A stretch of 64,000 bases of DNA from Candidatus Obscuribacterales bacterium. GTDB taxonomy: Bacteria; Cyanobacteriota; Vampirovibrionia; Obscuribacterales; Obscuribacteraceae. The position numbers were made by a program, and so were the translations under genes. A model generated the notes under the pieces. The model was given only the letters and a program-made list of their open reading frames with translations. It was not told the origin of the DNA and made no database searches. Below are positions 24,063 through 41,979 of this stretch, piece by piece (within the stretch, counting starts at the first letter, position 1; each line of letters starts with the position of its first letter). The stretch is taken from contig CBDDIJ010000005.1 in the NCBI GenBank assembly GCA_965228855.1, positions 1,216,001 to 1,280,000 on the forward strand. The letters are read 5' to 3'.

Positions 24063-24181
24063 AAAGTATCGCGTTCGGGGCACAACCAAATGTGTGTGCG
24101 TTTTTTGACTCGAAGCTAGTCGACGGGTCAATCGGAATCCATTTTTAGCCAGGCTGGGCTGGGGAGCATTTGTAAGAGCTA

Positions 24182-27100
24182 GTGTCGTCATCTATCTTTC
24201 GAAGATTTTCGAGTAGCGCCAGGCTTGGTGACCTTTTGGTGCAGGCAGGCATTCTGACGCCTGCGCAGTTGCAGGAGGCGATGCGTTCATCGCGTTCGAA
24301 GAAGCTGCAAATCGGTCAAGTACTGGTAATGTCGGGCTATATGACCGCCCGCGACCTGCAGATTGTGCTTGAAGCGCAATCCATGTTGCGAGACCGTACT
24401 ATCGACCTCAACCTCGCTATTCAATGTATAAAAGTCGCCCGCAAAATCGGCGGTAATTTCTCGGATGTACTCGAGGATTACGACCAGAACGCCGCTCAGC
24501 GAGCGCGAACCGGCAAGCTCGGAGAGCTGCTGTTCGAAGCTGGTCTGGTAAGCGAAGAAGATTTATCAGAAGCGATGGAACGCAGTGTCAACACGGGCAT
24601 GCCCCTGGGGAGGATGCTTGTTTTAAACCGCATATTGCCCAGCGAAGTTCTTCAAAAAGCGCTTGAAGTACAAGTTCGTCTGCGCGATGAAGTTGTTTCA
24701 CGAGAAGAAGCAATACTGGAGTTACGTCAGGCAGCCGGTCTCGAAGGTGCACCTGCCGAACAACCCAAAGCCGAAGAGAAGAAAAAACCGCTTGTGCGGC
24801 TCGGCGAACTTCTGGTTATGGCAGGCATTCTGACTGAAACCGACGTCATGGATGCGCTTGAATGGGGGCTTGCCAATCAACAGCCGATTGGAGTCGTCCT
24901 GGTTTCGCAGGAGCTTATTTCGAAGGAACTTCTGGACGCAGCGTTGTTTTTCCAGGAAGCTGTTCGCGACGGAAAAATCGACGCTATGAAAGCGTGCGAA
25001 CTGTTGTCGGAAGTTTTCTCTACCGGTGTCAGCCCTGAAGAAGCTCTAGCCGAGGCGGCTCCCAGCAACAAACGCGAAGAACCGGAAGTTCCGCCTATTA
25101 CATATCAGCAATTGCTCACACTCTCGCGTGTTTGCACTGATGAAGATATTGAAAGCGCTTTTGAGTTGAAACGACACGGCGCCGCCCTGATTGGAAAAGT
25201 GCTGGTACTGACGGGCTTAATGGATGTGCCAACACTTCAAGCTACGCTGCGATGCTATCAAATGGTCGCGAAAGGTTGGCTCAATCCTGACGATGCAATT
25301 GCAACGCTCGATTACTGCCTTCACAAGGGTGACCAGATCATTTCATTCGAGCAAGGCTTGCGCGATCTGAAGTGGACGCCGGAAAGCGGGCTCAAGATGC
25401 GTGGCGAAGCCGGCACCGAAAGTAGTACCACTACGCCGAAAGTCTCCGAATCGAAAGCTCAAACCCCTGAAGAAAAGGAAGCCGCTCGCAAGGCGCTCAA
25501 AGAGTCGATTCGCAAAGTCACTGCTGAGGCACTGGGAGAGAGCGCATTGAGTCCAGCATCACCGGCGGAAGCGACAGTAGAAGAGCCGGCTCTCGCAGAT
25601 TCAGATGAAGACGATGATGATGACGAAGAATTCGTTCTGACAAATGTTTTGGAAAGAACGCTCGCCGAATCCGAGGCCGCCTCAAACGATCAGGTAGAAC
25701 AGGCAGAGTCAAAAGCCGCTGGTAAAGCGGCGGCAGAAAAAGCGGCAGCAAGCCTCTCGGAAAAGATTGCGGCGGAACGAGAACGCTCAGAAGCAGCTCA
25801 AGAGTCGGTAGCCGCGAAGAAGTCCGTCGAACCCTCCGCGGCTAAGTCAAAAAGAGGTAAGGACGCGGAGCATGCAGAAGCCGATGCAGAGCCGAAGTCT
25901 GATTTAGGCGCTCCAGCCGAAAGTAAAGCTGAAGCAGAATCGCAGCCGGCGGACGAAGACGACGCAAACGCTAAACCGACTCAAGAAGATAACGCAGACG
26001 AAGACGACGCTAAAGCTGCTGACGATGCTAAAGCCGCAGAAGAAGCCAAAGCTGCGGAAGAATCAAAATTGGCCGAAGAAGCCAGAGCTAAAGAAGAGGC
26101 CAAAGCTGCCGAAGAGGCCAGAGCTGCTGAAGAAGCCAGAGCTGCTGAAGAAGCCAGAGCTGCTGAAGAAGCCAGAGCCGCTGAAGAAGCCAGAGCCGCT
26201 GAAGAAGCCAGAGCCGCTGAAGAAGCCAAAGCTGCTGAAGAAGCTAAAGCAGCTGAAGAAGCTAAAGCAGCTGAAGAAGCTAAAGCTGCAACCGCTGCTA
26301 GCGAGGCCAAGGCAGCAGAGGAGGCTAAAGCGGCAGCCGAGCAAGCGGCTGCTGAGAAAGCAGCCGCCGAGAAAGCACCCTCAGAAGCTTCCTCTTCGCC
26401 AGAACCGGCTTCGGAGCTCGCTCCTGCAGCTAAATCAAGTCGCAAGAAGATGCCGGTTGACATGGATGAAGATGACGATAACGACACCAGAGTCGTCGCT
26501 TCCAGCGAACCATCATTGGCACGAGCATTAAACTCGTTATTTGACAACGGCTTCGACGATGATGAACCACCACTCTCATCGAACAACGACAAACTCACCG
26601 AGCCGCAAGAACGTGAAGCGGCCGAGCCTGCAGAAGAAAACTCTGCTGGTGGCCTCAAAAATCTCCTCCGAGGATTGATCGGTGACGAAGAAGACGACGA
26701 AGAACCCGCTGAGAAGCCGGCGGAAACCGCCAAAGCAGAAGTTTTTGCCGGCAGTACTGCCGCTAAAAAGGCAGCGAACGCAGCATCAAGTGGTAGCGCC
26801 GGTGGTTCTTCCGGCAAAGAAGTAATCGCAAAATCAGACGATGCCGAACCAACATCGACTAACGGCGAGTCCAAGCCGGATTCAGAGCTCAGTGAGATCG
26901 AGCGCGCAGAAGTGAAACTGGAAGAGACTGAGGCGAAAAATGACGCGATAAAAGATGAGGCGGACTCGGCAGAACCTGTAACCGAGCCGACCCCGGACGA
27001 AGTTGCAATTGAAGATATTGCAAAACTGTCCGCAGAACAGCTCCTCGTCGAAATCATGAAAACGGCCCAAAATCCGGAAATCAAAGTCACGTCCAAACGC

Positions 27101-27733
27101 GGCGGCAGATTCTCAGAAACAATCCTGCCCGAAGACGCCAAGGCAAGACAGCTGGCTAAGCTCGTCGGTAAGGAAGCCTCAAAAGATCTTGCTGAAAAAC
27201 TATCATTCGACCAGGCAGGTGAAAAGAGTGAAGAACCAGTAGACACCGCATTCGGACGCCTGGCTGAGACTTACTTTGAACAGGGCAACTACAAGGAAGC
27301 TCAAGTCATTTACGAACGTATGCTCGTCAACCGGCTCAACGAGCTGGGTCCAGACAACCCGGCCCTCGTCGAAGACTACAATAACCTGGCGATGACGCTT
27401 TGTGTTCAGGGTCGCTTTGATAAAGCGGAGCCGTTCATGAAACGAGCTGTCCACCTGTACGAAAGCGCCCCAACCCAAGATCAGATAGAGTTTGCAGACT
27501 ACCTGCACTCACTCGGCACCATCGAATATAAGCTTGAAAAACACAAAGATGCCGAAGAAATAATGCTACGCGTTGTGAGTATCCGACGAGAATCTCTGGA
27601 AGAGGATCACGAGGACATCGGCCGCGCACTGGCAGATTACGCCAAAGTTTTGAAAAAGCTCGGCAAAGACGAATCGGCTGAGTCCATATACAAAAAGGCT
27701 CGCGAAATTTTAAAGAAGCACCGCGATAAGTGA
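24182..27733 (+). CDS. Tandem MshEN-like (c-di-GMP-binding) domains + acidic/Ala-rich linker + C-terminal TPR domain
   Basis: RLGDLLVQAGIL, KLGELLFEAGLV, RLGELLVMAGIL, each paired with a second xLGxxLV...Q half-motif. Kinesin-light-chain-type TPRs at the C-terminus. Confidence 0.8.
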   Translation: MSSSIFRRFSSSARLGDLLVQAGILTPAQLQEAMRSSRSKKLQIGQVLVMSGYMTARDLQIVLEAQSMLRDRTIDLNLAIQCIKVARKIGGNFSDVLEDYDQNAAQRARTGKLGELLFEAGLVSEEDLSEAMERSVNTGMPLGRMLVLNRILPSEVLQKALEVQVRLRDEVVSREEAILELRQAAGLEGAPAEQPKAEEKKKPLVRLGELLVMAGILTETDVMDALEWGLANQQPIGVVLVSQELISKELLDAALFFQEAVRDGKIDAMKACELLSEVFSTGVSPEEALAEAAPSNKREEPEVPPITYQQLLTLSRVCTDEDIESAFELKRHGAALIGKVLVLTGLMDVPTLQATLRCYQMVAKGWLNPDDAIATLDYCLHKGDQIISFEQGLRDLKWTPESGLKMRGEAGTESSTTTPKVSESKAQTPEEKEAARKALKESIRKVTAEALGESALSPASPAEATVEEPALADSDEDDDDDEEFVLTNVLERTLAESEAASNDQVEQAESKAAGKAAAEKAAASLSEKIAAERERSEAAQESVAAKKSVEPSAAKSKRGKDAEHAEADAEPKSDLGAPAESKAEAESQPADEDDANAKPTQEDNADEDDAKAADDAKAAEEAKAAEESKLAEEARAKEEAKAAEEARAAEEARAAEEARAAEEARAAEEARAAEEARAAEEAKAAEEAKAAEEAKAAEEAKAATAASEAKAAEEAKAAAEQAAAEKAAAEKAPSEASSSPEPASELAPAAKSSRKKMPVDMDEDDDNDTRVVASSEPSLARALNSLFDNGFDDDEPPLSSNNDKLTEPQEREAAEPAEENSAGGLKNLLRGLIGDEEDDEEPAEKPAETAKAEVFAGSTAAKKAANAASSGSAGGSSGKEVIAKSDDAEPTSTNGESKPDSELSEIERAEVKLEETEAKNDAIKDEADSAEPVTEPTPDEVAIEDIAKLSAEQLLVEIMKTAQNPEIKVTSKRGGRFSETILPEDAKARQLAKLVGKEASKDLAEKLSFDQAGEKSEEPVDTAFGRLAETYFEQGNYKEAQVIYERMLVNRLNELGPDNPALVEDYNNLAMTLCVQGRFDKAEPFMKRAVHLYESAPTQDQIEFADYLHSLGTIEYKLEKHKDAEEIMLRVVSIRRESLEEDHEDIGRALADYAKVLKKLGKDESAESIYKKAREILKKHRDK
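26015..26284 (+). repeat. In-frame 18-bp tandem repeat encoding AAEEA(R/K)
   Basis: 10 near-perfect GCnGCnGAAGAAGCnA(G/A)A units at 26105-26284 (6x AAEEAR, 4x AAEEAK), plus 5 degenerate units upstream. Confidence 0.95.
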
Positions 27734-27997
27734 TGGGCTGTGGGTCTTAAGGTCGGAAACGGCAAGCCACTGAGTATCATCGCAATTTCGCTCTGCTTAA
27801 TAGGAAGCGTTCTATTGTTGGCAATCGCGATCGAAAAGATTCCTCTGGGCACAGCATATGCGGTCTGGACCGGCATCGGCATAATTGGTACATTCGTTGT
27901 CGGCTGTGTTTGGTTAAACGAACCGGTCAATGGAGCTAGAATCGCATGGGCTGCGGTGATAGCCATCGGTGTTATCGGAATGGAATTGAGCCACTAA
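27734..27997 (+). pseudogene. sugE: SMR family (SugE/Gdx-like) transporter lacking most of TM1
   Basis: WAVGLK...IPLGTAYAVWTGIG..GT...EP is typical SugE. The ~15 N-terminal residues, including the essential Glu, are absent. W begins immediately after the upstream TGA. Confidence 0.65.
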
Positions 27998-28626
27998 TGG
28001 AAAGAATTGAAAGATGGATAGCTGTTCGCGGTCGCCAATTTCGAGACATCAGGGAAGCACTACGCGCTAGCTCTGCCAGGCAACTTACTTCTCTCAAAGA
28101 ATACTTCGAGGAACGTTCAGACACCAGACGAAACGCGGCGGGAGCAGTCGTCGACGGGCGTGTATATGGCTTCCAGAACGACGACTGGTACATCTTGCTC
28201 ATGGGAAGAAACAACTGGCATTCAGTCGCCGGTGGCGATGCAGTCTCGCTCAGACTATCCGAAGAAAACGGTGAGGTCGTGAATACCGGTGTCGGACTCG
28301 ATTACGAGTGTAGCGATGCACGATTTTATCGCAACAACGAAAAACTCTGGTCGATAATTCACGATGCGAATAAGGGGCAATATCATCTTCAAACTTCAGG
28401 GAAGCTCCCTGATTGCTACGAGCGCATAAAAAATATCGTTCTAGATCCCTCACTTCCCGAACCACCGAAGGATGATTTCAGGTCGCTTGGACGAAAACAC
28501 GACCGTAAAAAATACAGAGAGAGCGCCGTTGAAGTTCCACTTCGCGTGAGCAGAGCGCTGACTGATTACACGTGGTCGATGGGAGTTACCGAGAACGACA
28601 TCATTCACTGTTTCGAACTCGGATAA
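27997..28626 (+). CDS. Hypothetical protein, ~209 aa
   Basis: ATG 27997 overlaps the SMR stop (TAATG). Globular composition. Confidence 0.65.
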   Translation: MERIERWIAVRGRQFRDIREALRASSARQLTSLKEYFEERSDTRRNAAGAVVDGRVYGFQNDDWYILLMGRNNWHSVAGGDAVSLRLSEENGEVVNTGVGLDYECSDARFYRNNEKLWSIIHDANKGQYHLQTSGKLPDCYERIKNIVLDPSLPEPPKDDFRSLGRKHDRKKYRESAVEVPLRVSRALTDYTWSMGVTENDIIHCFELG

Positions 28627-29920: not shown

Positions 29921-32900
29921 GTGCGCCCGCATGAGGAGCGAGATTGGAGCGGCCATCAACCGAAAGATGGAATCACCAATATGCCGACAAAAGACAAGCC
30001 GAAGCGTTCCGAAGTCCAGACTCCCGGACTTTACGCCACCCCCAAGCAGCGCTCAGTGAGCCCGAGCGCGGCTCGTCCGATGATCGAAGGACGAACAATG
30101 CCAGGCAACATTTATGTTCCAGGCAAAACCCCCTCTCCCAGAGCAGCGATTTCGGGAGTCTCGGACACGGCGATCGTTTTGAATACGACCGCAAATGCCC
30201 TGGATATTCCCGGCGGACAGGTCGACTTGCTCAACGGACAAGACAATTTGCTCGACGGGCAGGTCGACTTGCTCGAAGGCAAGCAGAACAAACCCGAGAT
30301 TCTGGCGGCGACTTCGCCGGGTTTTGCGAGCAACCGTTCCAGCGGTCCGGAGAGCATCACCGAAATGGCCCGTGCTCTCAAAAACGACGTTGATCTGATC
30401 TTCAACTTCGTCCACGACAACATCGAATTCATCCCGACTTTCGGCAGCCAGAAGGGCGCGCTGGGCACGCTCATCGACGGCTTCGGCAACGCCTTCGATC
30501 AGTCCGAATTGATGATCGCGCTCCTGCGCGAAAGTGGTGCCTATACGTGCAGCTTCCAGTTCGGCGAACTCCAGCTTACCGCAGCACAGGCCGCCGCATG
30601 GCTCGGTAACGACCCGGGCAGCATCTGGGCGGCATCGAACCTGCTGGGTAACCTCGGCGTCCCCAACGAGACGAGCTGGACCGGCACCGAATGGGTTCTG
30701 CGCCTCAGCCACTGCTGGGTGAAGGTTCTCATCGCCGGCACTTACTACCACTTCGACCCGGCGATGAAGGCCTACACGAAGATTGACGGCATCGACCTCG
30801 CCACGGCGATCGGTTACAACGCCACGACCTTCATGTCGAGTGCCACCAGCGGCGCCACCATCACCTCCAACTACGCCCAGAACCTGAATCGCACGAATGT
30901 GCGAAACAACCTGGCGACGATGGCGAACACGCTGGTCACCTACATCAATACGAACGCACCGACCGCGACGACCGACGATATCCTCGGCGGTCGCACCATC
31001 GACAAGCAGACCACCCAGCTGCGCCAGACCGCCCTGCCGTATCTGCGCCCAAGCACGACGCCGACCACCTGGACGGACATCCCGAACAGCTACAAGGCAA
31101 CACTCGGGGTGCTCTATGACACCATCAACGTGAGTTTCTACTCAAAGGACATCCACGGCAAGCGACTCACGCTGTTCTTCAACGCCTCGCATCAGGCTGA
31201 GCTGCGTCTCGATGGCACGCTGATCGCAACCAGCAGCGCTCAGACGCCGGGCAGCTGGAACTCAGTCCTGCTCTCGATAACGCATCCCTATCCCTACACG
31301 TGGTGGGACCAGAGCTTCTGGCAAACGGTTTGGGAAGGCAAGCCCTACCTGATCGCGCAAGCCTGGGGTAATGCCGGTCGCAACATGACCGAGATTCACC
31401 GCGAGAGACTCAACCAGGCGATCTACAACGGCTCGGCGTCCGACTCTGAAGTGGTGCTCGGCGAAGCTCTCTCCGTGCGCTGGCACACCTGGAACTCACA
31501 GAAGAGCTGGACGTGCGACGTCTTCAATCGCATGACCCAGTGCACGACGGTACTCCAGCACCAGGTCGGTATGGTCGGCTGGTACGACACTCCGATTATG
31601 GACCTCGGCGGCATCGAATGGTCGAGCGGCGCCCTCGATAACAACTACGATAACGTCAATACCAACGACACCGCGCTCGCCATGCACGGCATCGCCTTCG
31701 AAGCCGGCACCATCGAGCAGATCTGCGGCATCGGCGGCATCAGCTCAACGACGATCCTCGACAAGGCCGTCCAGGACGGCAAGAAGATCTACCACGGACG
31801 CAGCGACAACTGGTCCGCAAGCGTTCGACCGAACCTGACCAACTACGATAGCCAGACTCTCGATGACATCGAAAACTGGTACCTCAACTATGGTTGGAAG
31901 GTTGCGATTCCTGAGGACGGAAATGTCGCCGTTCAGGACTTCCGAGGTTTCGGCTACTACGCAATCAGTCCCTGGCAGGGCGCAATCGGCATCTTCAGCG
32001 GCTACCTGAAGGGCGGCATGGGCGCCGTCGGTCAAACCATCAACATTATGGTTCCGAAGACCGGTGGCGCCAGCGTCAATCCGAGCTCTGATACGCAGCC
32101 GCATTGCACCAACAACGTATCGGCCGACCCGATCGACATGTACCGCGGCGCGTACCTCTATCGCAATACCGATGTCACCGTAGGTAGTGGCAGCAATCCT
32201 TACAGCCTGAGCTTCGAGCGCTTCTACAACTCGGGCGCACGCCTGGCGAACGGTCCTCTGGGTCTGGGTTGGAACCACAACTGGAACCACAGCCTGGCGG
32301 TAAACAGCGACGGTCTGCTTGCCATGGCGAACGCCTCGCCCCTTGCCGGCGCCTCCGGTCTGGTGGCCATGTTCGTCACAGTCGACCTCTACCGCGACCT
32401 GAACAAGCCCATCGACAAGTGGGTAACGGTCGCTCTCACGAATCGCTGGTTGCTCGATCAATCGCGCGACAACACGGTCGTCGTCAGCACGCCCGGCGAC
32501 ACCCAGTTCTTCGTCAAGCGAGCCAACGGCTCCTACATCGCGCCTGCAGGCGAGCCGATTTCGCTCGTCAAAAACGTCGGCGGCGATTGGACCTACACCA
32601 ACTCGCATCAGGTGAAGACCAACTACGACTCTTCCGGGAAGATCACTTCGATGGTCTATCCGCAAGGTGTGACGCTCACCTTCACGTACACGAGCGGCAA
32701 GCTCACGAAGGTCGCGAACGGTTTGACCCGCGAGCTCAACTTCACCTACACCGGAAGCAAGCTCACGGGCGTGACGGCCGGGTCGAGTTCGGTTTCATTC
32801 GCGTACTCGGGCGACAACCTGGTCACTGCGACCGACCCGGACAGCAAGAACACCACCTACGTCTACGACATTCCCGGTCGCATGACGCAGATGTTCCGCC

Positions 32901-35764
32901 CGGCCAATCCTTCAAGCGCGATCATGACCAACGTCTACGATACGCTTGGACGCGTTCAGACGCAGACCGACGGGTCCGGCAACGTCTGGACTTACTACTT
33001 CGCAGGCTGGCGGTCGGAAGAGAAGAACCCGACGAATGCCAGTCGCGTTCAGTATTTCGACGGCGACGGTAACGTCACGATCGAAACAGACGCACTCGGC
33101 AACGACACAAAAATGTCGTACGACGGGCTTGGCAGGCTGATTGAGAAAACATTCGACGAAGGCAATCGTCGGTTGTTCACCTACGACGCCAACCACAACA
33201 TCCTGACGGTGACCGACAAACCGAAGCCCGGCTCGCTGGATCCGGACATCGTCAAAACGTACACGTACAACGCCACCTTCTCCAAGGTAGCAACGGAAAC
33301 CGACGGGCTCGGCAACGTCACGACTTACCAGTACAACGCCACGACCGGCACGCTCACCAAGAAGATTTTCCCGACGGTCGACGGCGTCGCCGCGGAGCTT
33401 AACTTCACCTACAACGCCCGCGGTCAGGTTTTGACCATCACGGACCAGACCGGCATGGTCACCGCGTTCGTCTACAGCGGCACAAACGAAACGCTCACCT
33501 CGGTGAAGAAAGACTCGGGCACGGGCAAGCTCAATCTGCTGACCCAGTTCGCGTATAGCACCGCCGGCGATGTCACAAGCATTACCGACCCGCGCGGATA
33601 TGCGACTTCGTTCACCTACGACAACGTGCGACGCCTCAAGCAGATTACGCCACCCTCGCCGTTCGCCGCGAACATCACGAAGTACACGTATGACGCCAAC
33701 GGCAACCGCACCAAGGTCGAGCGCTACGCGGGCGCCGGTCCGGTCTACCAGACGATTAACGCAAGCTACACGGTCGACAACCTGCTTGCCACTATGACCG
33801 ACCCGTCCAGCAACGTCACCACGATGACGTACAACAGCTTGCGTCAGCTCTGGAAACGAACCGACGCTCTGAGCCGCATCACGACCTTCACCTACGACCA
33901 GGTCGGCCGGCTCGCCACCGTCACGGACTCGTCCGGCACGCTGGCAGAAACGCGCTCCTACACGGCGAACGGTCTGCTCGCATCGCTGTTGGACCAGCGC
34001 AGCAAAACGACCACATTCGAATACGACGGCTTTGATCGGTTGAAGAAGCGCACGTTCGCGGACGCGACCTTCGAGTCGTTCACCCACGATAAGAACGGAA
34101 ACGTCCTGACCAAGGTCACTCGCAAGGGCGACACGATCACGAACACGTACGACGGTCTCAACCGTTTGCGCACCAAAGCGCCGGCGGGCATGGCGACTGT
34201 GACATATGCCTACGACCGCGCCAATCGACTCCTGAGCGCTCAAACGCCGGTGGTCTCGGGCGATCCGTCGACCGGCAAGATCGAGTTCACCTACGATGCT
34301 GCTGGACGGCGCCTGACCGAAAAGTATCCGGACGCGAAGACCGTCACCTACAAGCTCGATGCCAACGGCAACGTGACGAAGCTGACCTACCCGGGCGGAT
34401 ACTACGTCTCGCGTACGTACGACCAGCTCAACCGTTTGACGCAGATCAAACTGAACGGAGCGGGCAGTGCGGCTCTCACCTTCAGCTACGACGTGCTCGG
34501 TCGGCGAACCGCGCTCGGATACGGAAACGGAACCAGCACGACCTACACGTATTCGCTCGACGACATGCTGACCGCTCTGACGCAAACATTCTCCGGCTCC
34601 TCCGTCGCCTACTCCTATGGGTACGACGCAGCCCACGAACTGACCAGTCAGGGTGTCACCGACAGCAACTACATGCGTCATCCGTCCGGCGGTGGAACCG
34701 TCAACTATGGTACCGCCAATGATGTCAACGAATACCCGACGGTCGCAGGTGTCAGTCAGACCTACAATGCCAACGGCTGCCTCACCGGCGACGGCGTCTG
34801 GACTTTCGGCTACGACAACGAGAGCCACCTGACCTCCGCTGTCAAAACCGGCGTCAACGTCGCGTTCAGCTATGACGCCCTCGGTCGTCAGACCCAGAAG
34901 GATGTCGGCGGAACCAAGACGCGCTACATCTACAGCGGCTTCCAGCGCCTGGCCGAATACAACACCGCCGGGTCTCTGACCTCGCGATTTGTCTACGGCG
35001 ATGGCATGGACGAACCGTTGATTGTGTTGAACGCGAGCAACGTGATCACTGCTTACCTGCACCACGACAGCCTCGGCAGCATCGTCGCCACCTCCAACAC
35101 GAGCGGCACGGTGACCAACAAGAACAAATACATGCCGTGGGGCGAGGGCACCGTGTCCGGTACCACCTTCGGGTTTACCGGACAGCGCTATGACTCGGAA
35201 ACGGACTTGTACTACTTCAAGAACCGTTACTACTCGCCCGCGCTCGGCCGCTTCCTGCAGCCGGACCCGGTGTTGTACGACGACTCGCTGAACACGTATC
35301 AGTACGCACGCAACAACCCGCTCTCGCTGGCGGACCCCTATGGTCTGTCTGCTGAATCTATCAATTCAAGCGTAAACGTCGGCAGTTCGAGCGTGGTCGG
35401 TGCCATCGGAACCGGCGGCGCAACGGGTCTGTCGGGCAACACTTCAGTCGGCTCCGCCTCGCTGGGCTATGGCAACGCCGGCGGCTGCACCTGCGCCTGC
35501 GGCGACGGCGGTGGCTCCGGAGGTGGAAGCACCGACGGAAATAGCGTCGGCAACGGCAACACCGGCAATGGCACCAATGGCGGTGGCGCCAGCATCTACG
35601 GCAACTACGGGAATGGAAACGGCAACTCCGACGACGGCTCCGGCGACACCATCTACTTCGACGGACTCGACGTCTACAACCGGATCGCACCATGTGTTGG
35701 GAAATGCGTCCTAGAAGGGGGCAAACTGCAAGATTGTATTTTCATATGTTTCCATGGAGGATAG
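29921..35764 (+). CDS. Rhs/YD-repeat protein with N-terminal transglutaminase-like domain, DUF6531, Rhs core and short Cys-rich C-terminal cargo
   Basis: IFNFVHDNI..KGALGTL..GNAFDQ..HCWV..FDP; ADPIDMYRG..FERFYNS..GPLGLGWNH; many YD repeats; FTGQRYD..RYYSP..GRFLQPDP..YARNNP..DPYGL. True start is probably ATG 29981 or ATG 30098 (AAGGA RBS). Confidence 0.92.
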   Translation: MRPHEERDWSGHQPKDGITNMPTKDKPKRSEVQTPGLYATPKQRSVSPSAARPMIEGRTMPGNIYVPGKTPSPRAAISGVSDTAIVLNTTANALDIPGGQVDLLNGQDNLLDGQVDLLEGKQNKPEILAATSPGFASNRSSGPESITEMARALKNDVDLIFNFVHDNIEFIPTFGSQKGALGTLIDGFGNAFDQSELMIALLRESGAYTCSFQFGELQLTAAQAAAWLGNDPGSIWAASNLLGNLGVPNETSWTGTEWVLRLSHCWVKVLIAGTYYHFDPAMKAYTKIDGIDLATAIGYNATTFMSSATSGATITSNYAQNLNRTNVRNNLATMANTLVTYINTNAPTATTDDILGGRTIDKQTTQLRQTALPYLRPSTTPTTWTDIPNSYKATLGVLYDTINVSFYSKDIHGKRLTLFFNASHQAELRLDGTLIATSSAQTPGSWNSVLLSITHPYPYTWWDQSFWQTVWEGKPYLIAQAWGNAGRNMTEIHRERLNQAIYNGSASDSEVVLGEALSVRWHTWNSQKSWTCDVFNRMTQCTTVLQHQVGMVGWYDTPIMDLGGIEWSSGALDNNYDNVNTNDTALAMHGIAFEAGTIEQICGIGGISSTTILDKAVQDGKKIYHGRSDNWSASVRPNLTNYDSQTLDDIENWYLNYGWKVAIPEDGNVAVQDFRGFGYYAISPWQGAIGIFSGYLKGGMGAVGQTINIMVPKTGGASVNPSSDTQPHCTNNVSADPIDMYRGAYLYRNTDVTVGSGSNPYSLSFERFYNSGARLANGPLGLGWNHNWNHSLAVNSDGLLAMANASPLAGASGLVAMFVTVDLYRDLNKPIDKWVTVALTNRWLLDQSRDNTVVVSTPGDTQFFVKRANGSYIAPAGEPISLVKNVGGDWTYTNSHQVKTNYDSSGKITSMVYPQGVTLTFTYTSGKLTKVANGLTRELNFTYTGSKLTGVTAGSSSVSFAYSGDNLVTATDPDSKNTTYVYDIPGRMTQMFRPANPSSAIMTNVYDTLGRVQTQTDGSGNVWTYYFAGWRSEEKNPTNASRVQYFDGDGNVTIETDALGNDTKMSYDGLGRLIEKTFDEGNRRLFTYDANHNILTVTDKPKPGSLDPDIVKTYTYNATFSKVATETDGLGNVTTYQYNATTGTLTKKIFPTVDGVAAELNFTYNARGQVLTITDQTGMVTAFVYSGTNETLTSVKKDSGTGKLNLLTQFAYSTAGDVTSITDPRGYATSFTYDNVRRLKQITPPSPFAANITKYTYDANGNRTKVERYAGAGPVYQTINASYTVDNLLATMTDPSSNVTTMTYNSLRQLWKRTDALSRITTFTYDQVGRLATVTDSSGTLAETRSYTANGLLASLLDQRSKTTTFEYDGFDRLKKRTFADATFESFTHDKNGNVLTKVTRKGDTITNTYDGLNRLRTKAPAGMATVTYAYDRANRLLSAQTPVVSGDPSTGKIEFTYDAAGRRLTEKYPDAKTVTYKLDANGNVTKLTYPGGYYVSRTYDQLNRLTQIKLNGAGSAALTFSYDVLGRRTALGYGNGTSTTYTYSLDDMLTALTQTFSGSSVAYSYGYDAAHELTSQGVTDSNYMRHPSGGGTVNYGTANDVNEYPTVAGVSQTYNANGCLTGDGVWTFGYDNESHLTSAVKTGVNVAFSYDALGRQTQKDVGGTKTRYIYSGFQRLAEYNTAGSLTSRFVYGDGMDEPLIVLNASNVITAYLHHDSLGSIVATSNTSGTVTNKNKYMPWGEGTVSGTTFGFTGQRYDSETDLYYFKNRYYSPALGRFLQPDPVLYDDSLNTYQYARNNPLSLADPYGLSAESINSSVNVGSSSVVGAIGTGGATGLSGNTSVGSASLGYGNAGGCTCACGDGGGSGGGSTDGNSVGNGNTGNGTNGGGASIYGNYGNGNGNSDDGSGDTIYFDGLDVYNRIAPCVGKCVLEGGKLQDCIFICFHGG

Positions 35765-35826
35765 AGCAGACTCGGAGGTAATAAGCGGCGCCACAAATTC
35801 CGCTGCTTGAGGGGAAATTAGCCATT

Positions 35827-35857
35827 GGTAGGCGAGCAGAAGTGGTGCTCGCCTACC
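35827..35857 (+). terminator. Strong hairpin downstream of Rhs
   Basis: GGTAGGCGAGCA-gaagtgg-TGCTCGCCTACC perfect 12-bp stem, no long U tract. Confidence 0.55.
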
Positions 35858-35962
35858 CTCTCCACACGAAATCTGATTCAAATCTCCTAACTTGGTGTGT
35901 TGTGACAGTTAAGTACAGTGCGACTGGGTACAATAGCTACGTCACCACTCAAGTTGAAGAGC

Positions 35963-36685
35963 ATGGACGCGAAACAAATCATTGACGCGATGCGAGAAAA
36001 CTATCTTCGGTGCACATCCTACGAAGACCGCGGTTCGATCAGCAGTGTAAGTCGAACTCTCGCTAAAGACAAAGTACTCACCGGAAATTTCACAACCACT
36101 TTCATTCGTCCGAATTTACTCAAATTTGAGCTGAGCACAGATGAGGATGGACTGAAACGGCACTTCATACTTCAGGCTGATGGCGACTCGGTGCGGGCGT
36201 TCAAAGAGTATTCTCCAGAGGTGAAGCCTGTAAATACGACGGTGTTTGATTCTTTCAAAGGTGCGCTCCAAACCGTTGGCGGGATCACCGAAAACGTCAC
36301 CAACACAGTATTTTCGCTTCTGGGTGAAATCAATCCTAAATACTCCCTCTTAAATGCGAGCACACTGCAACGAGCCGATGATGAAATTATAGAGGCAGTT
36401 CCCTGTTATAAAATTGAGTTTGTTATAGACCCATTCGTCGCAAGCGAGGGAACTGCCTGGGTATCAATTGATTCATTCTCACTACGGAGATTAGAAGAGA
36501 GAACGGTTTACACGCAGGAGTTTAATGCCTTCGCGATAGAACAAACAAAACCTTTTCTTGAGGCAGAGGAAATATCCTTTAACGAAGAGGATCTGCACAT
36601 CAGCCTTACCCGCATCTTCAGTTTCGCAGAGGTCACTTTCAACAACAGCATTAGTATCGACAAAATTACAGACCGCAATTTCTGA
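35963..36685 (+). CDS. LolA/DUF2092-like fold protein, paralogue 1 (putative immunity)
   Basis: 240 aa. Family motifs Y..C.SYED.G, F.RP.L..F, LQ.DG.S, CY.I, AW.S, FNNSI. No signal peptide. Confidence 0.75.
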   Translation: MDAKQIIDAMRENYLRCTSYEDRGSISSVSRTLAKDKVLTGNFTTTFIRPNLLKFELSTDEDGLKRHFILQADGDSVRAFKEYSPEVKPVNTTVFDSFKGALQTVGGITENVTNTVFSLLGEINPKYSLLNASTLQRADDEIIEAVPCYKIEFVIDPFVASEGTAWVSIDSFSLRRLEERTVYTQEFNAFAIEQTKPFLEAEEISFNEEDLHISLTRIFSFAEVTFNNSISIDKITDRNF

Positions 36686-36764
36686 AGTGATCGACAATTC
36701 GAAATCGACCTGCACTAACCAACCTAGATTGAACGCATTATTTAAGAGGCACGAGACAAAACAG

Positions 36765-37490
36765 TTGGAAGCAAAAAATATTCTTGACGTAATGCTCGAA
36801 AATTACGTTCGCTGCTCTTCCTATGAGGATGTTGGGAATGTGGTTGACGTTGAAGAGACGACATTGGGCGAGAGAGTAACAACTGGTAAATTCCGCACTA
36901 CGTTTATTCGCCCTGACTTGCTGGCATTCAATTTGGAAAGTGAAAATACGTTTGGTAATCATCGATTTCTTTTGCAGTCTGATGGAGAATCAATTAGAGC
37001 AATGAACTCGAGAATTTCAACGGATGGTGAGCAGAAACTGGTTACACAGGCTTACCCGTCACTGCCAGAAGCACTTTATACACAAGCTGGCTCTACGTTA
37101 GGAATAACTTCTCTGACATTCGGCTTGCTCAACGTCATCAATATGCTCTACGACATCCGAAATGCGGAAAATATTGAGCGCTTAGATGATGAAGCGCTCG
37201 ATGGGATAAGCTGCTATCGTCTGGCGGCGCTTATAAATCCGTTCGTCCGATATGAATCAGACGCCTGGATTGCAACAGACACGTTTCACCTCGTTAGATA
37301 CGAGCTCCGAACCGTTTTGACGGAGGAATTTCGAGAGTCCATAAAAGCTCTTGAGAAGACCGTTTCGCAGGCAGAGGGTATCACGGACGATGGGGTCGAA
37401 GCAATTGGTCGAACCCAAACCACTCACTATGAACGAGTAGTTTTCAATAATAGCATCACGATCGATAGGATTGTCGACAATCATTTTTAG
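36765..37490 (+). CDS. LolA/DUF2092-like fold protein, paralogue 2
   Basis: Start set at TTG 36765 by alignment to paralogue 3 (same leader GAGGCA..GACAAAACA.TTG). 241 aa. Confidence 0.75.
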   Translation: MEAKNILDVMLENYVRCSSYEDVGNVVDVEETTLGERVTTGKFRTTFIRPDLLAFNLESENTFGNHRFLLQSDGESIRAMNSRISTDGEQKLVTQAYPSLPEALYTQAGSTLGITSLTFGLLNVINMLYDIRNAENIERLDDEALDGISCYRLAALINPFVRYESDAWIATDTFHLVRYELRTVLTEEFRESIKALEKTVSQAEGITDDGVEAIGRTQTTHYERVVFNNSITIDRIVDNHF

Positions 37491-37679
37491 AAGAAGAGAA
37501 ACGCCGCTCCCATTGCTATGACCTATAATCGAGACTATCATACCGTTCTTCATAGATCGCGCCTCAACCATCTAGCATCAAATATGGTGCCCACTCCCCC
37601 GCAGAAGCATTCAGCCTTAATCAATAGCGGAAGACGCAATTCACGAGCGTGCCACCAGGCATAGAGGCAGACAAAACAC

Positions 37680-38405
37680 TTGGAAGCAAAAAATATTCTT
37701 GACGCAACGCTTGAAAATTACGTTCGATGCAATTCTTATGAGGATGAAGGTCGAGTAGTTGAGGTGAGCAAAACAACTGCGAGCGAACGAGTTGTTAAAG
37801 GAGCGTTCTCGACCATCTTTATTCGTCCAGACCTAGCGCGCTTCGACCTACGATGTTCGACCGATCCCGGTCGACATAGCCTGATTCTTCAAGCTGATGG
37901 GGATTCGACGAGAGCGATGTATACCATTGAAAAATCTACCGCCGAAAGCACAACATCTACACAAGCCTATCCATCGCTTCGGGACGCACTTCTAACATAT
38001 GCCGGTTTCACTTCTGGAGTTACGCCAACCACATTCGGCCTGCTGAGCGAGATAAAGATGGCTTACGACATCAGGAATGCAAAAGACATCCACAGATTGC
38101 CAAACGAAACCGTCAGCGATATTGAATGCTACAGACTATCTGCGGTGATTGATCCAGAGATCCGATATGATGCAGACGCATGGATTTCGATTGACACTTT
38201 CTGCGTCGTAAAGTACGAAAAGAGGACGACGATGACAGAGAAAACTCGGGACGCCACGCGAAAGCTAGCGGAGCAATTCCGGAAGTCCGAGGAAATCCCA
38301 GACAATGGAGCAGAGTTCCTCTATTCTAGTGCAACAATTTGGTACGACCGAGTTGTTTTCAACAACAGCATAACAATCGACAAGATCATATCCAATCAGC
38401 TTTAA
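37680..38405 (+). CDS. LolA/DUF2092-like fold protein, paralogue 3
   Basis: 241 aa, same family motifs. Confidence 0.75.
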   Translation: MEAKNILDATLENYVRCNSYEDEGRVVEVSKTTASERVVKGAFSTIFIRPDLARFDLRCSTDPGRHSLILQADGDSTRAMYTIEKSTAESTTSTQAYPSLRDALLTYAGFTSGVTPTTFGLLSEIKMAYDIRNAKDIHRLPNETVSDIECYRLSAVIDPEIRYDADAWISIDTFCVVKYEKRTTMTEKTRDATRKLAEQFRKSEEIPDNGAEFLYSSATIWYDRVVFNNSITIDKIISNQL

Positions 38406-38433
38406 GCTCGAAGTTCCCAGCAGGATTACGAAG

Positions 38434-39168
38434 TTGAACGCAACGCAAATTATCGAGGCAGTTCGTGCCAATTATATTAAGTGCGCTTCTTACGAGGATA
38501 AGGGTACAATCAAGGTCACAAACAAAACCCGCATCAAAGAAAGCGTCACCAGGGGAACCTTCTCACATTTATTCGTTCGCCCCAACCTTCTTAAGTTTCA
38601 GCTAAACACGGAAGATGATGTACTTAAGCGGCGTTTTCAACTTCAGTCGGACGGAGATTCTGTTAGAGCAATTGAAGATTTTGAGCCAGATGGGATAAAG
38701 CCAACCAGAACTGAAGCATATAGCTCATTACACACGGCACTGAGAACGGTAGCCGGAGTTACGTTTGGAGTGACGAATGCAGTATTCTCACTTCTTGGAG
38801 AAGCAAATCCAAAATATTCTTTGGTCAACGCACTCGAGGTGCGAAGGGCAGAGGACGACACAATCAACAACCTGCCCAGCTATAAAATCGAATGCATGCT
38901 TGACCCGCTCGTATCAATCGAAGCAACAGCCTGGATTTCGATTGACACGTTCTCATTGCTGCAATATGAGCAACGTTCATCCTACACAGCGGAGTACCTG
39001 AGATTCGTTAAAGAACAGACTAAGATTTTTTTTGAAGCCGAGGGACTGCCAAGTTTAAGCGAGGAAAGCGAGTCTCTCAGCAGTGTTTACAAAATCAGAT
39101 TTGGTGAAGTCACGTTCAACAACAGTATCAACGTTGACAGAGTGCTAAACAACAGCCCTCTAGAATGA
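38434..39168 (+). CDS. LolA/DUF2092-like fold protein, paralogue 4
   Basis: 244 aa, same family motifs. Confidence 0.75.
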   Translation: MNATQIIEAVRANYIKCASYEDKGTIKVTNKTRIKESVTRGTFSHLFVRPNLLKFQLNTEDDVLKRRFQLQSDGDSVRAIEDFEPDGIKPTRTEAYSSLHTALRTVAGVTFGVTNAVFSLLGEANPKYSLVNALEVRRAEDDTINNLPSYKIECMLDPLVSIEATAWISIDTFSLLQYEQRSSYTAEYLRFVKEQTKIFFEAEGLPSLSEESESLSSVYKIRFGEVTFNNSINVDRVLNNSPLE

Positions 39169-39341
39169 GAATTTGACACACAAACTTAACGAGACTACTG
39201 AGGCGTTGTAGTTTCCGTACATCGTCGATTCAATGCGGTAAATTTGAGCTACTTTTGCAGCCGAAGAAGGTTGGCGAGCCATCGCCTTCCATTCTATAAA
39301 AACAGCTGTCGAGATTTGGAAGGAGACTTCAGGCTTCCTAA

Positions 39342-39370
39342 TTGACACTACCTACGGTGCTTACTATAAC
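39342..39370 (+). promoter_or_regulatory. Near-consensus sigma70 promoter inside the paralogue array
   Basis: TTGACA (39342-39347), 17-nt spacer, TATAAC (39365-39370). Confidence 0.65.
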
Positions 39371-39596
39371 GCAAAGTATAAGAGCTACGTATACATTCTA
39401 CGTAACCAATGAGACTGAACGTCTGAGCGAAACGTTTTATGACAGTTAGAAGAAGCCAGCAAGCCACAAACGTACCGAAATTTCGCAGACATTTTTACAC
39501 CGTCGAGTGTCGGCCATTTTTCATAGCTGCAAATCGGCCGCTGCGCCCGGGGTACAATATTTTCATCACCAGTTCTTTCAGTAAACAAAAGAGACC

Positions 39597-40313
39597 ATGG
39601 AAGCAAACCAGATAATTGATGCAATGCGAGCAAACTATATACATTGCTCGTCCTATGAAGACGTCGGCTCCGTGCGCATTGTTACTCAGACTCAAGCTTC
39701 GGAAAAATTACTCATTGGAAATTTTGCCCACGTTTTTTTACGACCAGATCTCTTAAAGTTGGAGCTTTTCACAAAGGAACAGGAAGTTGAACGACGATTC
39801 GTTATCCAATGCGATGGAGACTCCGTCCGTTCATTCGAGGAACATAGTACTCAGGGGACGAATACATTTGCATACGACTCGTTTGCATCGGCACTCAAGA
39901 CTACAGCCGGGATCACGGCCGGAGTTACTAATGTTGTGTTCTCGCTTCTCGGTGAAATCGATCACGGATATTCGATGTTAAATGCAAATCAAATGAAGAG
40001 AACTGATGACCAAGTCCTAGATGGACAAGTTTGTTTCACTATTGACTTTGTTATAGATCCCACAGTTTCAATTGAGGCAACGGCTTGGATATCCGCTGAC
40101 AACTTCTCACTGATGAAATTTGAACAGAGATCAAATTTCACTGCCTCCTACCGAGATTCCATACGAGAGTATGCCCGGATGTTTTACGAAGCCGAAGGAA
40201 TACCAATGAAGGACTCGGACGAGGCAATCACCAGAGAAATGATAATCAAGTTCGACAATATTACTTTCAACAACAGCATAAACGTCGATAAGCTGATAAG
40301 CCATGTCTTCTAG
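39597..40313 (+). CDS. LolA/DUF2092-like fold protein, paralogue 5
   Basis: 238 aa, same family motifs. Confidence 0.75.
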   Translation: MEANQIIDAMRANYIHCSSYEDVGSVRIVTQTQASEKLLIGNFAHVFLRPDLLKLELFTKEQEVERRFVIQCDGDSVRSFEEHSTQGTNTFAYDSFASALKTTAGITAGVTNVVFSLLGEIDHGYSMLNANQMKRTDDQVLDGQVCFTIDFVIDPTVSIEATAWISADNFSLMKFEQRSNFTASYRDSIREYARMFYEAEGIPMKDSDEAITREMIIKFDNITFNNSINVDKLISHVF

Positions 40314-40453
40314 CTACTTTCGCTTGCAACCAGCGCACATGCAGGGCCTAGCTGGAGTTGCCCAAGCGAGAACACCAGCGCGCGAGAAGGGAGGAAAACC
40401 AGGTCAAACGATACCTCTCTGCAAAGACTTTGACAAAGCGCTAACAGGTTCTG

Positions 40454-41182
40454 ATGGACGCCAAACTAATTATCGATGCGATGTTGCAGAATTACCGGCG
40501 GTGTACTTCATACGAAGATACCGGAGAGGTCCTTGAGTTGATTAAGTATGGTGACCGTGAGCAAGTAAACGTTGGTCATTTCTCAACGACATTCGTTCGA
40601 CCCGACCTGCTGAAATTTGAACTGCGAATGCGAGAGTTTGATAATCAGCGTCGTTTCGTATTACAATCAGACGGAGAGGCGATACGTTCACTGGAGGTCA
40701 TTAGCGGACCTTCTCGAGACGATACCACGTCAGTCAGAGCTTACGATAACTTCGAGGCTTCGCTACAAACTGTAGCTGGTCAAACCAAAGGAATCACCGC
40801 CCTGAACTTCTCGCTGATAGGAGCGCTTCCAAAGTCCCGCCAGTTCCACGAAGTGAACACGATTATCCGGAACGATGACGATACAGTCGACGGAATTCTC
40901 TGCTATAAGATTGAGTCTCAAATAGACCCACTTGCGGGAGTCGTGGCAACCGCTTGGATTTCTGCGAGCGACTTTTCCATACGAAAATATCAACTCGACA
41001 CAGTTTTCAGCGAGCAATTCCTGGTCGCTGCCAAACACTCAGCCCGACAATTAGCCAAGGCGGAGGGATATGAATATGACGGAAAGAACGAGTGCGTCGG
41101 GTTTGTTCACACTTTCAATTTCCTGGAGACGACATTTAACAACAGCACCAACATAGATAGGATCACCACTGAGTTTTCGTAG
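40454..41182 (+). CDS. LolA/DUF2092-like fold protein, paralogue 6
   Basis: 242 aa, same family motifs. Confidence 0.75.
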   Translation: MDAKLIIDAMLQNYRRCTSYEDTGEVLELIKYGDREQVNVGHFSTTFVRPDLLKFELRMREFDNQRRFVLQSDGEAIRSLEVISGPSRDDTTSVRAYDNFEASLQTVAGQTKGITALNFSLIGALPKSRQFHEVNTIIRNDDDTVDGILCYKIESQIDPLAGVVATAWISASDFSIRKYQLDTVFSEQFLVAAKHSARQLAKAEGYEYDGKNECVGFVHTFNFLETTFNNSTNIDRITTEFS

Positions 41183-41256
41183 CCCCAGAACAAAAACACG
41201 TGATCGCTTCGGAATGAAAGTACAACGTTAGCCAGACTCACCGCAAGATTAAGAAA

Positions 41257-41979
41257 ATGGACGCGAAACAAATCATTGACGCGATGCGAGAAAACTATCT
41301 TCGGTGCATATCCTACGAAGACCGTGGCTCGATCAGCCGTGTAGGTCGAACTCTCGCTGAAGACAAAATACTTAGCGGAAAATTTACCAACACCTTCATC
41401 CGTCCGAATTTACTCAAATTTGACCTGACTACGGATGAGGACGGGCTGAAACGGCACTTCATGCTTCAGGCTGATGGCGACTCGGTACGGGCGTTCGACG
41501 AACACAGCCCAGACGTAAGACCTGTACAAACGCTTGCGTTTGATTCTTTCAAAGGTGCGCTCCAGACCGTTGGCGGGATCACCGAAGGCGTCACAAACAC
41601 AGTGCTTTCACTTCTGGGTGAAATCAATCCTAAATACTCCCTCTTAAATGCGAGCACACTGCAACGAGCCGATGACGAGATTATCGAGGCAGTTCCCTGC
41701 TATAAAATTGAGTTTGTAATAGACCCATTCGTCGCAATCGAGGGAACTGCCTGGGTATCCATTGATTCATTCACGCTGCGGAGACTAGAAGAACGAACGG
41801 TTTACACGCAGGAGTTTGGTGCCTTCGCGATAGAACAAACAAAAATTTTCCTTGAGGCCGAGGGAATATCCCACAACGAAGAGGACCAACCTATCAGCCT
41901 TACCCGCATTTTCAGTTTCGCAGAGGTCACTTTTAATAACAGCATTAGTATCGACAAAATTACAGACCACAGATTCTGA
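41257..41979 (+). CDS. LolA/DUF2092-like fold protein, paralogue 7 (close copy of paralogue 1)
   Basis: 240 aa. About 30 substitutions versus paralogue 1 by manual alignment, no indels. Confidence 0.75.
   Translation: MDAKQIIDAMRENYLRCISYEDRGSISRVGRTLAEDKILSGKFTNTFIRPNLLKFDLTTDEDGLKRHFMLQADGDSVRAFDEHSPDVRPVQTLAFDSFKGALQTVGGITEGVTNTVLSLLGEINPKYSLLNASTLQRADDEIIEAVPCYKIEFVIDPFVAIEGTAWVSIDSFTLRRLEERTVYTQEFGAFAIEQTKIFLEAEGISHNEEDQPISLTRIFSFAEVTFNNSISIDKITDHRF

Follow-up and report, generated by a model that had tools for sequence, protein, structure and literature searches.

Rhs cargo is normally an enzyme domain of 100 to 300 residues. In the Rhs-CT/RhsI systems of Enterobacteria and the Rhs effectors of type VI secretion systems (T6SSs) (Poole et al. 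2011, PMC3150448; Tse15, PMC11461821), a shell of YD repeats closes with a DPxGL core end, the C-terminus behind it is variable and unlike the GC-rich core in composition, tips are recombined at the end of a conserved segment, and a partner gene lies directly downstream. Arrays of divergent partner genes behind a single effector, which result from effector displacement, are described for the T6SS of Vibrio cholerae (PMC5361080) and for orphan immunity genes of Serratia Rhs loci (PMC10539506). Here we describe a locus with these features in a 64,000-nucleotide stretch of contig CBDDIJ010000005.1 from a Candidatus Obscuribacterales bacterium; we refer to the whole stretch as the window. The locus consists of a gene for an Rhs/YD-repeat protein that ends in a twin-CX3C peptide of about 30 residues (tip A), followed by seven tandem genes (W1 to W7).

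The locus differs from the systems above in several ways. Compared with Rhs-CT/RhsI, the variable unit begins not at DPYGL but 107 codons behind it, is only about 30 residues long, and holds no enzyme domain. No PAAR or TssC gene and no orphan tip fragments were found, and the host is a nonphotosynthetic relative of cyanobacteria. As in the displacement arrays, the first gene matches the current tip, and a close strain with another tip lacks that first gene while keeping the rest. In contrast to those arrays, all seven genes belong to one protein family, and the displaced part of the effector would be too short to leave remains. Since all seven genes are of one family, the array appears to grow by diversifying a single fold.

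Gly-rich class II microcins that carry C-terminal disulfides, among them microcins V and L, have dedicated ATP-binding cassette (ABC) exporters and small membrane immunity proteins. The cargo described here shares with this class a Gly/Ser-rich, largely unstructured peptide of about 90 to 140 residues, Cys residues near the C-terminus, and a putative role in bacterial competition; unlike a microcin, it is carried by an Rhs protein, and its candidate immunity protein is a soluble 240-residue barrel. The Cys motif of the alpha-hairpinins is given as C1X3C2X4-20C3X3C4 in passages of PMC11591084. Tip A fits this motif and is predicted to form a helix-loop-helix. Compared with the peptides described there, however, it is the C-terminus of a 1927-residue bacterial Rhs protein and not part of a secreted plant precursor, and it is hydrophobic and near neutral, not cationic. 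We regard the likeness as analogy, not homology, and the C1-C4 and C2-C3 disulfides are questionable for the tip given its cytoplasmic partners.

The Rhs protein and its exchangeable tip

The Rhs gene spans positions 29981 to 35764 of the forward strand and encodes 1927 residues from the ATG at 29981. The reading frame (29921 to 35764) would encode 1947 residues if counted from a GTG at 29921; the ATG is the likely start because the homolog P0002 begins there, at the Met of MPTKDK. The open reading frame (ORF) matched RHS_repeat (PF05593, E = 5.2e-67, nine stretches) and DUF6531 (E = 1.6e-13) in Pfam and YD_repeat_2x (TIGR01643, E = 6.6e-42) in NCBIfam. A match to Rhs_assc_core (TIGR03696; 81.1 bits, with a cutoff of 32.5) covers residues 1717 to 1789 of the 1927-residue form and stops at DPYGL (35333 to 35347, forward strand), which lies in a PxxxxDPxGL-type motif at the end of the core, NNPLSLADPYGL. 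DPYGL is presumably the site of C-terminal autoproteolysis, as in characterized Rhs proteins, and its residues D1, P2, G4, and L5 are almost invariant in the alignment of tails. The cargo may thus be cut off at this motif by autoproteolysis and be encapsulated. The host genome (8.2 Mb in six contigs) contains a single copy of this Rhs tail.

DPYGL is followed by 138 residues (35348 to 35761) and a TAG stop codon (35762 to 35764). Gly (39), Ser (17), and Asn (14) make up 51% of this tail. A preliminary description, made from the letters of the sequence, had reported the length of the tail, its Gly/Asn/Ser richness, a CTCAC motif, and the ending, and recomputation gave the same values. The protein ends in APCVGKCVLEGGKLQDCIFICFHGG, with Cys codons at 35693, 35705, 35735, and 35747 that form the motif CVGKC-X9-CIFIC. 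Searches of the post-DPYGL tail against Pfam and NCBIfam returned no match and no enzymatic domain.

We compared the window with the related locus L010 (genome G193), whose last 183 Rhs core residues are 99% identical to those of the window. The two DNA sequences are nearly identical through DPYGLSAE and then diverge over a first variable block of about 41 codons, V1 (35359 to 35480, forward strand), both flanks of which are nearly identical. They are about 97% identical over a Gly/Ser/Asn-rich segment (35481 to 35668, forward strand) that runs from the CTCAC motif (35486 to 35500, forward strand) to ...DTIYFDGL. From about 35669 on, the tip and most of the spacer behind it are divergent. The tip of L010 (tip B), APCVANCIIGNERVALCIAGCFAKFSAG, is also a twin-CX3C peptide. 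In three other studies, contigs of runs X4, X5, and X6 follow the linker and part from the window sequence at 35667/35668. By hand translation, the X6 contig reads ...GLWLYTKFVPC past the junction, which is another tip, and the X4 contig is identical over 35355 to 35668 and then reads ...GLSRIQLGWRV followed by a stop, with no Cys tip. X4 lacks coverage over 35699 to 35983, and no conclusion here draws on that gap; no RNA dataset was listed for 35300 to 37000. A 421-nucleotide contig of X5 spans the linker, tip A, the spacer, and the start of W1 with 12 differences. Because this contig bridges the linker to the start of W1, the junction in the window is not an assembly artifact. The tip is thus swapped at one fixed junction, directly after ...FDGL, and the Gly-rich segment is kept; this is what the preliminary description had proposed in placing the divergence near DVYNRI, behind a conserved linker, with only the tip exchanged. 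Tip A, the exchangeable module (DVYNRIAPCVGKCVLEGGKLQDCIFICFHGG), occupies 35669 to 35761 (forward strand), with its twin-CX3C core at 35693 to 35749. The conserved segment at 35481 to 35668 is likely the left recombination arm.

V1 varies as well. The protein P0002 and the metagenome contigs L014 and L012 combine the tip of the window (with two substitutions, both outside the Cys core) with the V1 of L010; V1 and the tip therefore reassort. Contigs of runs X5, X6, and X8 skip V1, passing from 35358 to 35481. The idea that the cargo in front of the tip is a mere linker did not hold up, as V1 reassorts independently of the tip and the CxCxC triad of CTCAC (C52, C54, and C56) is invariant in 11 tails.

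Searching with the last 188 Rhs residues, we obtained 49 proteins and compared the tails of the best 14. Eight of the 14 (P0002 to P0009, 1842 to 1917 residues) share one architecture, in which DPYGL is followed by a variable stretch, CxCxC, a run rich in Gly and Ser, and, at the C-terminus, a CX3C-X9-12-CX3C peptide of quite different sequence. These tails end 103 to 160 residues after DPYGL. The other six carry unrelated tails. Across 11 aligned divergent tails, no columns of the tail are invariant except those of the seven Cys residues of CxCxC and the twin CX3C. The preliminary description had considered that this copy might be truncated, with homologs continuing into a long enzymatic domain. 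None of the 14 homologs compared continues into a longer domain, and all eight that cover the tail end in a twin-CX3C peptide. Judged by this conserved architecture, the Rhs copy is not truncated.

The codon usage of the Rhs ORF changes abruptly before the tip, as had been noted; the recomputed counts agree exactly. Codons ending in G or C make up 14 of 15 in the stretch before the last 25 codons and 8 of those 25 (17 end in A or T), the lowest count among all 1923 25-codon windows of the ORF. The fraction of G or C at third codon positions is 0.80 in the Rhs core (1438/1789) and 86/113 in the linker, compared with 0.45 to 0.52 in the seven downstream genes and 0.49 to 0.61 in nine other genes of the window. 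The description of this usage as foreign stands relative to the GC-rich Rhs core but not relative to the downstream array, whose AT-richer style the tip shares. Overall GC content is about 0.50 in the window, 0.60 in the Rhs core, and 0.42 to 0.49 from about 35690 to 42000 (0.44 to 0.47 over 36 to 42 kb). The GC-rich core is as much a compositional outlier as the tip.

In an AlphaFold2 (AF2) model of the cargo with a mean predicted local distance difference test score (pLDDT) of 49, residues 1 to 108, including CxCxC, scored below 50 and showed no structure; the segment at 35481 to 35668 is likewise predicted to be disordered (pLDDT below 50). The tip was modeled as a helix (residues 111 to 127), a turn, and a second helix (132 to 141) with a pLDDT of 68 to 85, in line with the helical hairpin that had been expected from the paired CX3C motifs. 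A Foldseek search of the PDB with the cargo model gave no matches at E ≤ 0.001. Loops between the two CX3C motifs measure 9 to 13 residues across nine tips. The tip cores are hydrophobic (grand average of hydropathy [GRAVY], 0.44 to 1.33) and carry a net charge of -2 to +1. The window and L012 alleles of tip A differ by four synonymous and no nonsynonymous changes inside the Cys core and by two nonsynonymous changes outside it. The restriction to synonymous changes in the core is the signature of a translated, constrained peptide.

Searched by regular expression in all six frames, the window, L010, and L011 yielded no twin CX3C besides the Rhs tips and Arg/Cys-rich strings in noncoding frames. 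Tip A itself was found elsewhere only in the P0002 cluster, in a search restricted to shared words that yielded one candidate. Two other roles for the tip were considered and rejected. A C-terminal sorting signal does not agree with a polymorphic tip located downstream of the cleavage motif. Modification of the kind seen in ribosomally synthesized and posttranslationally modified peptides was dropped because no radical S-adenosylmethionine enzyme or other maturase family was present among the genes scanned (18679 to 28626 and 35918 to 42620).

Other parts of the Rhs repertoire showed further variation. The N-terminal ~700 residues of the Rhs protein (29981 to 32100) have no signal peptide and no PAAR match. 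A marginal match to Transglut_core (E = 2.9e-4, under the curated cutoff) lies at residues 146 to 280, before DUF6531, and several Rhs homologs carry this family (PF01841) in precomputed lists. The host genome (G000) has two other Rhs genes, L046 (G000:C2:583807-587400) and L048 (G000:C5:243552-246857), with short, odd, and different tails, one of 76 residues with GDD repeats and three Cys and the other with CRCC and more Cys. Many Rhs tails in the bacterial family are Pro/Gly-rich and of low complexity. In L011 (9140 to 9742; L017, G228:C72), the Rhs protein lacks about 20 residues, NTYQY...DPYGLS, that include the cleavage motif, and it keeps CSCSC, the Gly-rich run, a twin-CX3C tip, and the downstream family member; if the assembly is right, its cargo would stay uncut.

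The downstream array and its covariation with the tip

Seven tandem genes of 238 to 244 codons directly follow the Rhs gene on the forward strand (35963 to 41979), and their products are 38 to 88% identical to one another. None matches a Pfam family. W1 (35963 to 36685) encodes 240 residues, and copies 98 to 100% identical to it follow tip A in L012 and L014. W2 (36765 to 37490), W3 (37680 to 38405), and W4 (38434 to 39168) start with TTG; W2 is a 97% orthologue of the first array gene of L010, which stands behind tip B, W3 is 97% identical to L010 A2, and W4 is 96% identical to an L010 copy that is split into two ORFs. W5 (39597 to 40313; 99% to L010 A4) has its own 428-nucleotide upstream spacer with a -10-like box. 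W6 (40454 to 41182) is 99% identical to L010 A5, whose own profile match begins only at model position 22, and W7 (41257 to 41979) is 87% identical to W1.

The tip changes together with the first array gene. In all three loci with tip A, a W1-type gene follows. These are the window, L012 (98% identity to W1), and L014, whose contig holds 59 residues of the gene product, all of them identical. L010, with tip B, has no W1, and its array consists of orthologues of W2 to W7 at 97, 97, 96, 99, 99, and 82% identity. The right junction of the difference lies at the start codon of W2 (TTG in the window, ATG in L010), and W2 has lost the hairpin-plus-TACAAT spacer that precedes both W1 and the first array gene of L010. 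This pattern of tip A with W1 and tip B without it, together with the junction at the start of W2, means that the window and L010 differ by one cassette of tip, spacer, and cognate gene. W1 is likely the cognate immunity protein of tip A, and we treat it as the candidate for that role.

The order of the array also varies: L012 has W1, a W1/W7-like gene, and W3, and L013 has W6, a W7-like gene, and W2. In L010 (7299 to 8032 and 9177 to 9938), the W4 orthologue is split, and the profile match of the W6 orthologue does not begin until model position 22. These disrupted copies look like decay of array genes that lack a cognate tip, and with the reshuffling they would fit orphan immunity genes.

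The spacer between the Rhs gene and W1 contains a hairpin with a perfect 12-bp stem and a 7-nucleotide loop (35827 to 35857, forward strand; z of the whole spacer, -2.9). In L010, where the surrounding spacer has diverged, the hairpin is kept by two compensatory pair changes (T-A to C-G and C-G to T-A), and it may stabilize the mRNA or act in processing. We rejected a canonical intrinsic terminator, because no U-run follows the hairpin and it is absent from the list of terminator-like elements. A -10-like box, TACAAT (35929 to 35934, forward strand), lies within GGGTACAATAGCT, 29 nucleotides before the W1 start codon at 35963. The stretch that bears it recurs before W5 (39550 to 39571, family D11) and before the first array gene of L010. 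A scan for consensus promoters did not detect the box at 35929 to 35934.

The W proteins are predicted to adopt the half-barrel fold of LolA, LprG, and RseB with an N-terminal helix. The AF2 model of W1, built with 22 relatives, had a pLDDT of 90 and a predicted template modeling score of 0.84. Foldseek gave 85 PDB matches at E ≤ 0.001, led by LolA3, LprG, LolA, RseB, LppX, and VioE, with E values of 4e-8 to 1e-5 for LolA3, LprG, LolA, and RseB. VIA Z scores were 14.3 for LprG (root mean square deviation [rmsd] 3.7 over 169 aligned residues), 14.2 for the Bacteroides LolA-like protein 4mxt, 13.3 for RseB, and 11.5 for the MucB-MucA complex. The neighbors of W1 in the ESM Atlas were DUF2092, LolA, and MucB_RseB clusters. 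Sequence similarity is marginal: DUF2092 scored above its cutoff (22.5 bits, with a cutoff of 21.2) in 2 of 22 family members, none of them W1 to W7, and in 1 of 28 more distant relatives (L025), several others of which had subthreshold matches to DUF2092 or LolA_like, and a PDB sequence search with the W family profile gave no matches at E ≤ 10. RseB and MucB, which share the predicted fold with LolA, LolB, and LprG, hold a segment of a partner protein (6in9, 6jau, MucB with MucA). In contrast to the described members of the superfamily, the W genes are tandemly diversified and Rhs linked. Judged by eye and by hydropathy, the W proteins, like all other members of their family, start at the first helix and have no hydrophobic leader, signal peptide, or lipobox; on these grounds they are cytoplasmic LolA-fold proteins, which is unusual for the fold. 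Their Cys17 is nearly invariant.

Of 103 other genomes from the same bacterial family, 51 had matches to the W family, compared with none of 297 genomes from the class's other families, and a search of 5.8 billion proteins found only 15 clusters. The host genome has the seven W genes and two distant relatives elsewhere. A twin-CX3C Rhs tail stands directly upstream of the best family member in 6 of 29 genomes (L017, L018, L019, L020, L024, and L034). Conversely, all eight twin-CX3C Rhs tails observed (window, L010, L011/L017, L018, L019, L020, L024, and L034) are directly followed by a family member, and the build is present in at least three genera. Starting instead from Rhs genes, we examined 60 further core ends from the same bacterial family, taken in order of E value from 150 of the 260 matches listed, down to G160:C468. 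This sample left out matches that stop before query position 181 (such as G304:C89) and the two other Rhs genes of G000. None of the 60 tails contained twin CX3C. In this Rhs-first series, a family member lay downstream of all seven twin-CX3C tails, compared with 2 of the 60 others (both weak, partial matches); the Fisher P value of 4e-8 is descriptive only, as kin are not independent. One of these two, L098, has a tail with CGCGC and four more Cys and a partial family member downstream. The absence of twin CX3C from all 60 other tails and the lack of any invariant tail column besides the seven Cys indicate that the motif did not arise by chance.

The Rhs-linked members group in a single clade of 23 rows (96/93 support) in a tree of 47 sequences of the W family; the exception is L024, which falls outside it on a long branch. 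The cargo of L024 consists of DPSGL, seven residues, and the hairpin, with neither a Gly-rich stretch nor CxCxC, so that the hairpin is the common minimum. L020 and L034 have a different middle part, with two CxC pairs instead of CxCxC. In another genus, three family members lie close together (G240:C133:5275-10142); they may be a second array and are not Rhs linked where viewed.

Proposed function and alternative explanations

The main evidence on function is the seven-gene array, which the preliminary description had not seen. A conserved shell, a variable end that is exchanged at one set position, a partner gene that varies in step with this end, and a retained, partly decaying array together make up the pattern of an Rhs polymorphic toxin-immunity locus, and we consider it probable that the locus is one. 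As to its parts, we lean toward the hairpin being what is recognized, and most likely the active part, sequestered by the predicted barrel of its cognate W protein. Autoproteolysis at DPYGL would leave the unfolded cargo inside the Rhs cocoon, and the cargo would then be delivered to a neighboring cell. The hydrophobic, near-neutral hairpin, held by two disulfides or by a metal shared with CxCxC, would be the toxic or target-binding part, and the cognate cytoplasmic LolA-fold protein would sequester it in its hydrophobic cavity. W2 to W7 would be immunity genes that the strain has retained against earlier or foreign tips, and recombination between the conserved linker and homologous array genes would bring in new cassettes of tip and immunity gene. 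As for delivery, neither PF05943 (TssC/VipB) nor PF05488 (PAAR) had a match in the genome, which is 95% complete, and this argues against the T6SS-delivered subclass of Rhs proteins.

A number of observations weigh against a hairpin toxin with a LolA-fold immunity protein. The family is not exclusively Rhs linked, as the best member has no Rhs tail within 1.5 kb in about 21 of the 29 genomes. The twin-CX3C set was in part found beside LolA-like genes, an ascertainment bias that the sample started from Rhs genes corrects only partly. No orphan tips lie between the array genes, unlike the orphan modules of classical Rhs and contact-dependent inhibition (CDI) loci. The top match of the cargo model, vicilin-buried peptide-8 (which we take to be an alpha-hairpinin), was nonsignificant (E = 2.9, 32 columns, rmsd 2.2). 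The invariance of CxCxC and the existence of V1 indicate that more than the tip matters in most relatives, and seven is an odd count for a purely disulfide-bonded fold. The tips are near neutral, unlike most antimicrobial hairpins, and a soluble cytoplasmic immunity protein is ill suited to a disulfide-stapled membrane peptide that acts from outside. Such a membrane-active peptide is possible but sits badly with the neutral tips and cytoplasmic partners. The release of the peptide by a second cleavage, which the preliminary description had suggested, found no support. An oxidized tip acting in the periplasm fits badly for a related reason: the candidate immunity proteins have no signal peptide, and Cys residues in the cytoplasm would be reduced.

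Several of these points favor the principal alternative, that the whole 138-residue, seven-Cys cargo is the functional unit, perhaps binding metal through CxCxC and the twin CX3C, and that the tip is only what the immunity protein recognizes. The seven Cys residues that are invariant in 11 tails would, beside cytoplasmic immunity proteins, be reduced and free for metal, V1 adds a second variable block, and the Cys-rich L098 tail has a partial family member behind it. The L024 hairpin, however, does without CxCxC and the Gly-rich stretch, and in L020 and L034 the triad is replaced by two CxC pairs. V1 also reassorts while the adjacent gene stays the same, as in L014, which has the V1 of L010 and yet W1 downstream, and AF2 gave residues 1 to 108 no structure. 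We judge this alternative unlikely, though it deserves to be taken seriously.

That the LolA-fold proteins are instead chaperones or loading factors, which hold a hydrophobic tip in solution until its packing into the Rhs cocoon, seems improbable to us. The fold carries hydrophobic ligands, according to titles of PDB entries, and hydrophobic tips beside W proteins without a signal peptide would suit such a role. A chaperone would leave unexplained, however, why seven divergent intact paralogues stand beside one such Rhs gene, why W2 to W6 remain 96 to 99% identical across strains after the tip is lost, and why the array is reshuffled.

Quite improbable is a locus that is not a toxin system in this sense, with the tip and its LolA-fold partner acting as a lock and key in kin recognition or signaling or with toxic activity residing elsewhere, for example, in the N-terminal transglutaminase-like region. 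The lack of an enzymatic domain after DPYGL, the failure to find a T6SS sheath or PAAR gene, and the marginal Transglut_core match would agree with it; against it, a cytoplasmic partner cannot meet a surface ligand, and a swapped tip with a retained partner array matches effector displacement with immunity arrays (PMC5361080). Finally, it is barely credible that the Rhs gene is a degenerate remnant, truncated or frameshifted with its real toxin domain lost: its low-complexity composition and very short tip would agree with decay, and the X4 contig indicates that broken variants occur, but the build is kept in eight metagenomic clusters and at least three genera with invariant Cys, the changes in the tip core are synonymous only, none of the 14 homologs has a longer domain, and the tail is overlapped only by short ORFs in alternative frames, so that it continues in no other frame.

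If the hairpin is indeed a toxin neutralized by a W protein, the cargo range of the Rhs cocoon extends down to peptide size. With at least 13 tips, and seven paralogues in one strain, the system would offer a compact, naturally diversified pair of peptide and binder for studies of specificity, and the recombination junction, fixed within a coding segment of low complexity, illustrates natural cassette exchange cleanly. It would also be a first candidate interbacterial weapon for the Obscuribacteraceae (Melainabacteria), which inhabit sludge, soil, and freshwater. To our knowledge, no interbacterial weapon has been described in their phylum, and we know of no cultured representatives of their lineage. 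To judge from the comparative data, the novelty lies in how small the variable end is, in what it consists of, and in the fold of its partner, and these data point to an undescribed candidate family of LolA-fold immunity proteins. Our literature searches found no paper joining Melainabacteria, Vampirovibrionia, Obscuribacterales, or Obscuribacter with Rhs and none tying a LolA-like protein to immunity. Searches on bacterial hairpinin toxins returned plant papers only, those that joined Rhs with CX3C gave unrelated chemokine papers, and those on polymorphic toxins, cysteine-rich proteins, and LolA returned nothing relevant, the LolA passages of PMC12419801 concerning other operons. A bolder version, to which we give only a small chance, makes the ~30-residue hairpin smaller than any Rhs warhead known so far. 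It would kill by blocking the hydrophobic cavity of a LolA-fold carrier of lipids or lipoproteins that is essential to the target cell, and the seven W proteins would be decoy copies of that target, recruited as immunity proteins and diversified. The arms race between toxin and immunity would then be confined to a small peptide and one carrier fold.

Neighboring genes

Two named relatives are metagenome-assembled genomes of Candidatus Obscuribacterales/Obscuribacteraceae. After the array, a gene for a beta-carbonic anhydrase (42240 to 42929, forward strand) contains a TGA at 42618 to 42620, in the motif GHTKCGAV, where L010 (TGC) and L013 encode Cys. The frame is open and nearly identical past the TGA, which could be a nonsense mutation, a sequencing error, or selenocysteine recoding. 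Farther downstream, an ORF of 1349 residues on the reverse strand (47288 to 51337), with a locally raised GC content of 0.54 to 0.60, is conserved in L010.

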